NCBI RefSeq assembly: GCF_003334305.1
Contig: NZ_QOWS01000004.1
Reading direction: 5' to 3' (one strand)
Origin: Escherichia coli
GTDB taxonomy: Bacteria > Pseudomonadota > Gammaproteobacteria > Enterobacterales > Enterobacteriaceae
DNA: 64,000 nt
Of the stretch, positions 31,852 to 32,217 are shown piece after piece. Under the pieces are notes generated by a model. The model saw only the letters and a list, made by a program, of their open reading frames with translations. It was not told the DNA's origin and made no database searches. How positions within the stretch are numbered: position 1 is the stretch's first letter; every line of letters begins with the position of its first letter. A program made the translations under genes and the position numbers.

Positions 31852-32202
31852 TTGCATCCCTTTCATTTAATGAGTTATGTCTTCTCAAATTTCGCGATGC
31901 AATAAACGGGCATATATTAGGTAGCATGACCGTTTTAATTATAATTTTGCGACTGAGTTCAAATTATTGCCCCTCAATCTATGCCGCTTTCATTATTTCA
32001 ACATTGCCGACCAAAAGAGCGCTATCCAGATAAAAACGATTAAATGCGAGAGTGCGACATGCCAGAATGATTAATGAAATATCAATATGAGAAAATTACA
32101 GATAATTTCATTGTCAGGTTCTCTTCTCATTTTCGTGGTTTAACCACGATTATGTGATTGCCTCCGCAATTCCTGTCTCTAACTCCCCTTCCTCGCAAAA
32201 AC

Positions 32203-32217
32203 TGGCACTCCACGAGC
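32203..32217 (+). promoter_or_regulatory. Candidate sigma54 promoter upstream of uacT
   Basis: TGGCAC-tccac-GAGC: GG at 32204-32205, GC at 32216-32217, about 70 bp upstream of the uacT ATG; -12 element is non-consensus. Confidence 0.35.

Follow-up and report, generated by a model that had tools for sequence, protein, structure and literature searches.

We analysed a 64,000-nucleotide stretch of Escherichia coli DNA (contig NZ_QOWS01000004.1; "the window" below means this whole stretch), in which the 435-bp spacer between the divergent genes ygfT and uacT holds both a perfect palindrome and a promoter-like element in front of uacT. The palindrome had been proposed as the binding site of an enhancer-binding protein or another dimeric regulator; our comparison indicates that it is probably not functional, being a chance, lineage-restricted inverted repeat in a fast-evolving spacer. 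The reading that we favour, and hold to be probable though by no means assured, is that the palindrome arose by chance and that the region is organised by a σ54 promoter of uacT, an enhancer shared with ygfT and CRP-like boxes. The features concerned are, by position in the window:

32134–32148, no strand: palindrome CGTGGTT-T-AACCACG, in variable DNA that separates the enhancer-like motif from the CRP-like box
32202–32218, plus strand: candidate σ54-type promoter of uacT, CTGGCAC-TCCAC-GAGCA, with a predicted start site at ~32229
32080–32092, no strand: candidate YgeV enhancer (upstream activating sequence), TATCA-ATA-TGAGA, between the divergent ygfT and uacT promoters
32066–32072, no strand: AATGAT(T) block, conserved in alignment A1; from the start of its ATGAT to the enhancer palindrome is 13 bp
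32153–32168, no strand: CRP-like box TGTGA-TTGCCT-CCGCA, 8/10 consensus positions, centred at about −68.5 from the predicted uacT start
31948–31963, no strand: CRP-like box of ygfT, TTTGAACTCAGTCGCA when read on the minus strand, 8/10 consensus positions, starting 49 bp upstream of the ygfT σ54 motif
31898–31914, minus strand: σ54 binding site of ygfT, TATGCCCGTTTATTGCA, site OS32 of a chromatin immunoprecipitation sequencing (ChIP-seq) study (PMC4591121)
32287–33735, plus strand: uacT (ygfU), urate/proton symporter gene, ATG at 32287
29932–31851, minus strand: ygfT, divergent neighbour of uacT, whose product is the formate-dependent uric acid utilization protein; RefSeq start 31851
5108–6886, minus strand: ygeV, encoding the σ54 enhancer-binding protein of the cluster, the presumed activator at 32080–32092

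The palindrome neither recurs nor is conserved

The palindrome stands where the preliminary description placed it (CGTGGTTTAACCACG, 32134–32148, a perfect inverted repeat), and since T32133 pairs with A32149, the perfect repeat is in fact 17 bp long (8+1+8; 32133–32149). In the MG1655 coordinates of PMC4591121 it lies at about 3029236–3029250. The gap between it and TGGCAC, earlier given as ~55 bp, measures 54 bp, and its centre is ~88 bp upstream of the predicted uacT start site, within looping distance. Perfect 7+1+7 palindromes number 7 in the window, where shuffles give 4.3 ± 2.1; for the 8+1+8 form the count is 2 versus 1.3 expected. Folded as single-stranded DNA, the sequence gives a trivial hairpin (−8.1 kcal/mol), uninformative on function.

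The window covers the E. coli purine/urate cluster, a chromosome segment identical in many sequenced strains, K-12 among them, with the gene order xdhABC, ygeV, ygeWXY-hyuA, ygfK-ssnA-ygfM-xdhD, xanQ-guaD-ghxQ, ygfS-ygfT and then, divergently, uacT. No related copy of the palindrome is present upstream of xdhA, ygeW and ygfK, which share the activator, and its half-sites show no enrichment near these three genes. Allowing up to three mismatches, the window yields just two further matches (12504 and 15822), no more than chance would give.

For comparison between species we used loci of UacT relatives, one genome per species. The divergent ygfT-uacT arrangement is also found in a second Escherichia lineage, Citrobacter sp. 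R56, C. freundii, Serratia oryzae and Kluyvera, while the E. albertii contig stops short of where ygfT would be. The preliminary description had suggested looking for the same palindrome upstream of orthologous clusters; it is absent from Citrobacter, Serratia, Kluyvera and all the rest of 90 other comparison loci, and none of 12 other taxa has any inverted repeat at the equivalent position. Its columns are unconserved in the five-genus alignment (Citrobacter R56, for example, has ATGTTCCCCAAATTAGTC) and are the least conserved ones in alignments A1–A3. Even within Escherichia the palindrome differs while its flanks are identical: E. albertii has TTCTGTTTAAAGGCG, and SCPM-O-B-8794, an E. coli by label but of a divergent lineage, has CTCGAGTTAACCATG.

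Conservation within E. coli was assessed by 30-mer searches in ~5,300 complete genomes. The 30-mer containing the palindrome is identical in 80.6% of 5,312 genomes and differs in 19.4%; over their own 30-mers, the enhancer motif described below is identical in 99.5% of genomes, the CRP-like box in 98.2% and the promoter element in 96.9%. Variant alleles are exemplified by O157:H7 (CGTAGTTTAAGCACG), strains 14EC029 and CE0026f (CGTGGTTTAAGCACG) and FUJ80154 (CGTGTTTTAACCACG); every sampled variant breaks the symmetry, and none carries a compensating change. The strains of alignment A3 were picked for differing at the palindrome and so illustrate variation only, the 30-mer searches being the unbiased comparison. 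Since it neither recurs nor is conserved, the palindrome does not behave as an operator of the cluster's activator on either count.

We consider it extremely improbable that the palindrome is the site of a dimeric regulator, possibly YgeV, that activates the uacT σ54 promoter and perhaps ygfT. Its perfect 8+1+8 repeat, its distance from the start site, in the range of enhancer-binding proteins, its standing as the majority allele in E. coli and its being unusual for its 60-bp neighbourhood would suit such a role. However, it has no counterpart at the promoters with the same activator, is not kept in E. albertii or the divergent Escherichia lineage despite identical flanking blocks, and carries substitutions within the 30-mer in ~19% of E. 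coli genomes, with symmetry lost in all sampled variants. Moreover, the other palindrome of the spacer, at 32080–32092, has everything expected of a YgeV site.

Alternatively, the palindrome could be an E. coli-specific operator of a regulator encoded elsewhere, and the bound protein could interfere with CRP. Its TGGT-N3-ACCA core may resemble operators of GntR/FadR-type repressors (PdhR, UxuR, LldR). The palindrome also adjoins the CRP-like box, the end of its right arm lying 4 bp before TGTGA and abutting the usual 22-bp CRP footprint (from ~32150), and here too its majority status in E. coli is in favour. Yet no such regulator is encoded nearby, the palindrome varies within the species and lacks conservation between species, and our full-text literature search found neither a YgeV binding site nor any other transcription-factor site reported within the ygfT-uacT spacer. 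We regard this possibility as very unlikely.

A separate observation concerns E. coli FDAARGOS_1077 (L085, L087), where homology upstream of uacT ends at the centre of the palindrome, beside an IS5 and a truncated IS3 (insertion sequences). In this strain the enhancer is therefore separated from uacT, and so, probably, is ygfT.

A candidate YgeV enhancer

The second inverted repeat of the spacer, TATCAATATGAGA at 32080–32092, starts 54 bp upstream of the reported palindrome, ~143 bp from the predicted start site of uacT and ~198 bp from that of ygfT. A 12-mer contained in it, TATCAATATGAG, has three copies in the 64 kb, each upstream of a σ54 promoter (ygeW, xdhA and ygfT/uacT). The copies of the 12-mer or of the palindromic motif are:

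1224–1236: upstream of xdhA, in reverse orientation
7042–7054: upstream of ygeW
16710–16722: upstream of ygfK
32080–32092: between ygfT and uacT

The ygfK copy, at 16710, is a perfect palindrome, TATCATAATGATA. The pattern T[AC]TCA-N3-TGA[GT]A matches five sites in the window versus 0.48 expected, three of them 120–215 bp upstream of σ54 motifs of the cluster; xdhA adds a one-mismatch copy that contains the exact 12-mer, so that the motif is found at every σ54 promoter region of the cluster. Measured from start to start, it lies 110–213 bp upstream of the σ54 motifs.

The motif is also kept across genera and is present in 17 comparison loci. Its Serratia form, TCTCATTATGAGA, is a perfect palindrome, and in Aeromonas, Hafnia and Edwardsiella two such sites, 40–42 bp apart, lie upstream of the uacT homologues. 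A tblastn search of the uacT loci with YgeV detected no linked ygeV inside their 3-kb flanks. Searching representatives of 50%-identity clusters yielded distant ygeV orthologues of 53%, 51% and 45% identity, and the motif occurs in the regulatory spacers beside them. One of these loci (L088) has two copies, the first between ygeW and ygeV, upstream of the ygeW promoter (5914), and the second between divergent promoters of xdh and a ygfT-like gene (12323); a second (L089) has it between divergent xdh and ygfT-like promoters (12349), and a third (L091) upstream of a ygfK-like gene (11131).

YgeV has the domains of a σ54 activator (PAS, AAA+ Sigma54_activat and HTH_8, from the open reading frame and Pfam), with the DNA-binding domain at about residues 540–592. 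The PRECISE-1K study defined a YgeV iModulon, and notes σ54 promoters before xdhABC and ygeWXY as well as reduced ygfT expression in a ygeV mutant (PMC10602906). Both uacT and ygfT are on the YgeV iModulon list in a Reg-Seq preprint (PMC12132413); one of its supplements mentions neither gene. Because the motif recurs at the promoters of the regulon, is conserved and co-occurs with the activator gene, the sequence at 32080–32092 is likely to be a YgeV enhancer. Full-text literature searches returned no published description of the motif or of its 12-mer.

The conserved AATGAT block next to it may be an extra enhancer half-site; by eye, the ATGAT-N8-palindrome arrangement is also present in Hafnia, Edwardsiella and Aeromonas. 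We also considered TATCAATATGAGA as an IHF site (WATCAA-N4-TTR) and rejected it, since it lacks the TTR part and since TATCA is replaced by TCTCA in Serratia and Kluyvera.

The σ54-type element in front of uacT

The element TGGCAC-N5-GAGC was confirmed at 32203–32217 upstream of uacT: TGGCAC (32203–32208), TCCAC (32209–32213) and GAGC (32214–32217) give the GG-N10-GC spacing of a −24/−12 promoter. As had been pointed out, its −12 element is weak, with AGCA and not TTGCA; the −24 element is good. Matches to TGGCAC-N5-TTGCW with up to two mismatches number 46 in the window versus 44.6 expected. Thus neither the palindrome nor the promoter-like element rises above chance on sequence alone, and only comparative data part them.

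Across Escherichia, two Citrobacter species, Serratia oryzae, Kluyvera and Pluralibacter, CTGGCA[CT]-N6-[AC]GCATG is invariant, while the rest of the intergenic alignment has ~55% mean column identity; the spacer between the promoter halves varies, and the sequence downstream of GCATG is unconserved across genera. At the same position Hafnia, Edwardsiella and Aeromonas have a variant, TGCGCA[CT]G-N4-TGTGCA, whose −24 element (CG) is weaker and whose −12 element (TGCA) is better. A near-identical −24 variant, TGCGCACGCTTATTGCA, precedes the ygfT-like gene that adjoins a distant ygeV orthologue (L089, 12495). Taken over these three genera and the ygfT-like gene, the element reads TGCGCAC-N5-T[GT]TGCA. 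From this CG-for-GG variant and the ygfT site of E. coli (TATGCC...), it seems that one G at −24 may suffice in this regulon. In the ygfT promoter itself, the TTGCAT of the −12 element is conserved across five genera.

The element also has a presumed activator and a candidate enhancer at hand, with ygeV in the cluster and the regulon-wide palindrome starting 122 bp upstream. A simple scan of 31800–32350 gave no σ70 promoters or terminators, and uacT is nearly silent in ordinary cultures (4–5 reads; PMC10294691). The tentative σ54 call for uacT is thus strengthened by conservation across genera, by the fixed distance to a CRP-like box (below) and by membership of the YgeV iModulon. Given this conservation, the lack of a σ70-type promoter, the near-silence in cultures and the iModulon membership, a σ54 promoter is the best reading of the uacT element.

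The window has one more match to TGGCAC-N5-GAGCA, CTGGCACGCATCGAGCA, on the minus strand at 40634–40649; it scores 10.3 bits with the matrix used below and lies in the xerD/fldB area, outside the purine cluster.

CRP-like boxes at recurring distances

We scored as CRP-like any site with at least 8 of the 10 positions of TGTGA-N6-TCACA, for which the background rate is 0.00055 per position. All five σ54 promoters of the cluster have such a site, at 48 bp (xdhA), 58 bp (ygeW), 78 bp with a second at 48 bp (ygfK), 49 bp (ygfT) and 49 bp (uacT) from the promoter motif. The box of ygfK at 78 bp, TGTGAGTTCATTCACA, is a perfect TGTGA-N6-TCACA. The boxes in the window are:

1286–1301
7197–7212
16813–16828
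16843–16858
31948–31963
32153–32168

The uacT box has a perfect left half and retains C-x-C-A in the right half. Each of the 14 taxa examined, from Escherichia to Aeromonas, retains it, and its distance to the promoter is fixed across genera at 48/49 bp, or at 59 bp, one helical turn more, in Hafnia and Edwardsiella. The ygfT box is kept as TG[CT]GA-N6-TC[AT]AA in five genera, and the 48-bp spacing recurs in the distant ygeV loci. For the spacer between ygeV and ygeW, a native Crp site has been mentioned (PMC12507026). By its match to the consensus, the box at 32153–32168 is a candidate cAMP-CRP site. In the MG1655 coordinates of PMC4591121 the uacT box lies at about 3029262 and the ygfT box at about 3029057. 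We also considered whether the TGTGA box could be the downstream arm of an enhancer-type palindrome and rejected this, its upstream partner being unconserved.

Weighing the proposed arrangement

Several observations weigh against a chance palindrome next to a σ54 promoter, a shared enhancer and CRP-like boxes. The palindrome is locally unusual, matched in only 2 of 300 shuffles of its own 60-bp neighbourhood, and its perfect form is the majority allele in E. coli (~81%); a species-specific role is therefore conceivable. One unconserved 30-mer of the spacer is also far more variable than the palindrome (33.8% identical). As for the promoter, the 42 ChIP-seq sites of PMC4591121 that are intergenic and on the sense strand served to make a position weight matrix, and all of them score higher (8.8–21.5 bits) than the uacT element (6.4–6.7 bits). 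In the window the known sites of ygeW, xdhA and ygfK take ranks 1–3 and that of ygfT rank 33, with the uacT element outside the top 40 positions; it has no T residues immediately 5′ of the −12 GC. The ChIP-seq study, which lists σ54 sites at xdhA, ygeW, ygfK and ygfT, reports no peak at the uacT element, although it detected the ygfT site 300 bp away (PMC4591121); the ygfT peak is itself weak (fold above threshold 3), and weak sites can be missed. Genomic systematic evolution of ligands by exponential enrichment (SELEX) with σ54 holoenzyme likewise lists no uacT site. Finally, the assignment of YgeV and CRP to these sites follows from motif logic.

These properties of the promoter raise the alternative that CTGGCA-N7-AGCATG is the site of another factor, and that uacT is transcribed from an unrecognised σ70 promoter with the CRP-like box as a class I site. 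The low matrix score and the missing ChIP-seq and SELEX signals agree with this, as does the place of the box, a CRP centre near −61 to −72 being typical of class I σ70 promoters. In contrast, we found no σ70-like −35/−10 pair, and the expected −10 region, past GCATG, is unconserved, whereas the conserved positions are exactly GG and GC at σ54 spacing. In addition, the same fixed spacing of the CRP-like box is seen at the four ChIP-verified σ54 sites of the cluster, and uacT is co-expressed with the YgeV iModulon. We therefore judge a σ70 promoter of uacT unlikely, if worth keeping in mind.

Under the σ54 arrangement that we prefer, a non-canonical uacT promoter at 32202–32218 would mirror the known ygfT site at 31898–31914. 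YgeV, possibly aided by the AATGAT block at 32066–32072, would bind the enhancer at 32080–32092 and from there activate both divergent promoters through DNA looping. At ~68.5 bp upstream of each start site, cAMP-CRP would introduce a bend with constant helical phasing, and its binding would add carbon-source or catabolite control. The palindrome, which lies between the enhancer and the CRP-like box, would not be needed. In a wider form, which we offer as a tentative and rather doubtful generalisation, all promoters of the YgeV regulon, including the previously unlisted one of uacT, would share a TATCA-N3-TGAGA enhancer, a phased CRP box (centred at about −68.5, or one to three helical turns beyond) and a σ54 promoter, often non-canonical, the design being conserved from Escherichia to Aeromonas; CRP would take the bending role usual for IHF and place anaerobic urate use under catabolite control.

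Relation to known systems

The uacT element resembles the σ54 sites of xdhA, ygeW, ygfK and ygfT in its −24 GG/−12 GC spacing, the enhancer-like palindrome 120–215 bp upstream, the CRP-like box at the shared 48/49 bp and its co-expression in the YgeV iModulon. Unlike them, it has AGCA in place of TTGCA at −12, scores 6.4 bits against their 9.3–17.1 and has no reported ChIP-seq peak. We conclude that it is probably a new promoter of a known kind, accompanied by a candidate YgeV operator.

Classical enhancers of σ54 activators include the NtrC sites of glnAp2, the FhlA sites and the NorR sites. The sequence at 32080–32092 is, like these, a short inverted repeat, 100–200 bp upstream and between divergent promoters, whose motif is repeated at each of the regulon's promoters and accompanies the activator gene in distant taxa. 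The reported palindrome, in contrast, has only the shape of an inverted repeat in common with them, lacking both recurrence and conservation. As for the regulon, DioR, an enhancer-binding protein of Clostridiales, has a σ54 regulon of ygeW, ygfK, ssnA, ygeY, yqeB and the purine permease gene pbuX (PMC6615313). By gene set, and in a different phylum, pbuX parallels the place of uacT in the YgeV regulon.

Known CRP-modulated σ54 promoters include prpBCDE, glnAp2 and dctA. The YgeV-regulon promoters resemble them in having a CRP-type box upstream of a σ54 promoter, but differ in that the box occupies a fixed, helically phased position (~−68.5, −78.5 or −98) at five promoters of one regulon and is conserved as far as Aeromonas. 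Its role may thus be architectural, as is that of IHF. In the literature searched, we met no account of a CRP position that is fixed, phased and common to a whole σ54 regulon; if confirmed as an architectural element, the CRP box would add a variation on enhancer-dependent transcription.

The uacT-ygfT region is part of the E. coli gene cluster for anaerobic urate and purine breakdown, which has attracted interest because gut bacteria help to clear human uric acid, and the control of whose expression is little understood. Our analysis removes the palindrome as a misleading candidate and offers in its place three proposed elements: a likely promoter for the gene of the urate transporter, a phased CRP-like box, and a candidate operator for YgeV that all operons of the cluster have in common. 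They could guide the design of reporters and the engineering of urate-degrading probiotic strains.

Minor observations

An Rfam scan of 31800–32400 returned a single sub-threshold chance match. Within uacT, ~234 bp into the gene, lies an intragenic PhoB site, (T)CGTCACATTATTGCAAT(G), at about 32516–32533, which two PhoB ChIP studies found and which has been classed as transcriptionally inert. In E. coli FUJ80154 (L084) uacT is annotated as a frameshifted pseudogene.

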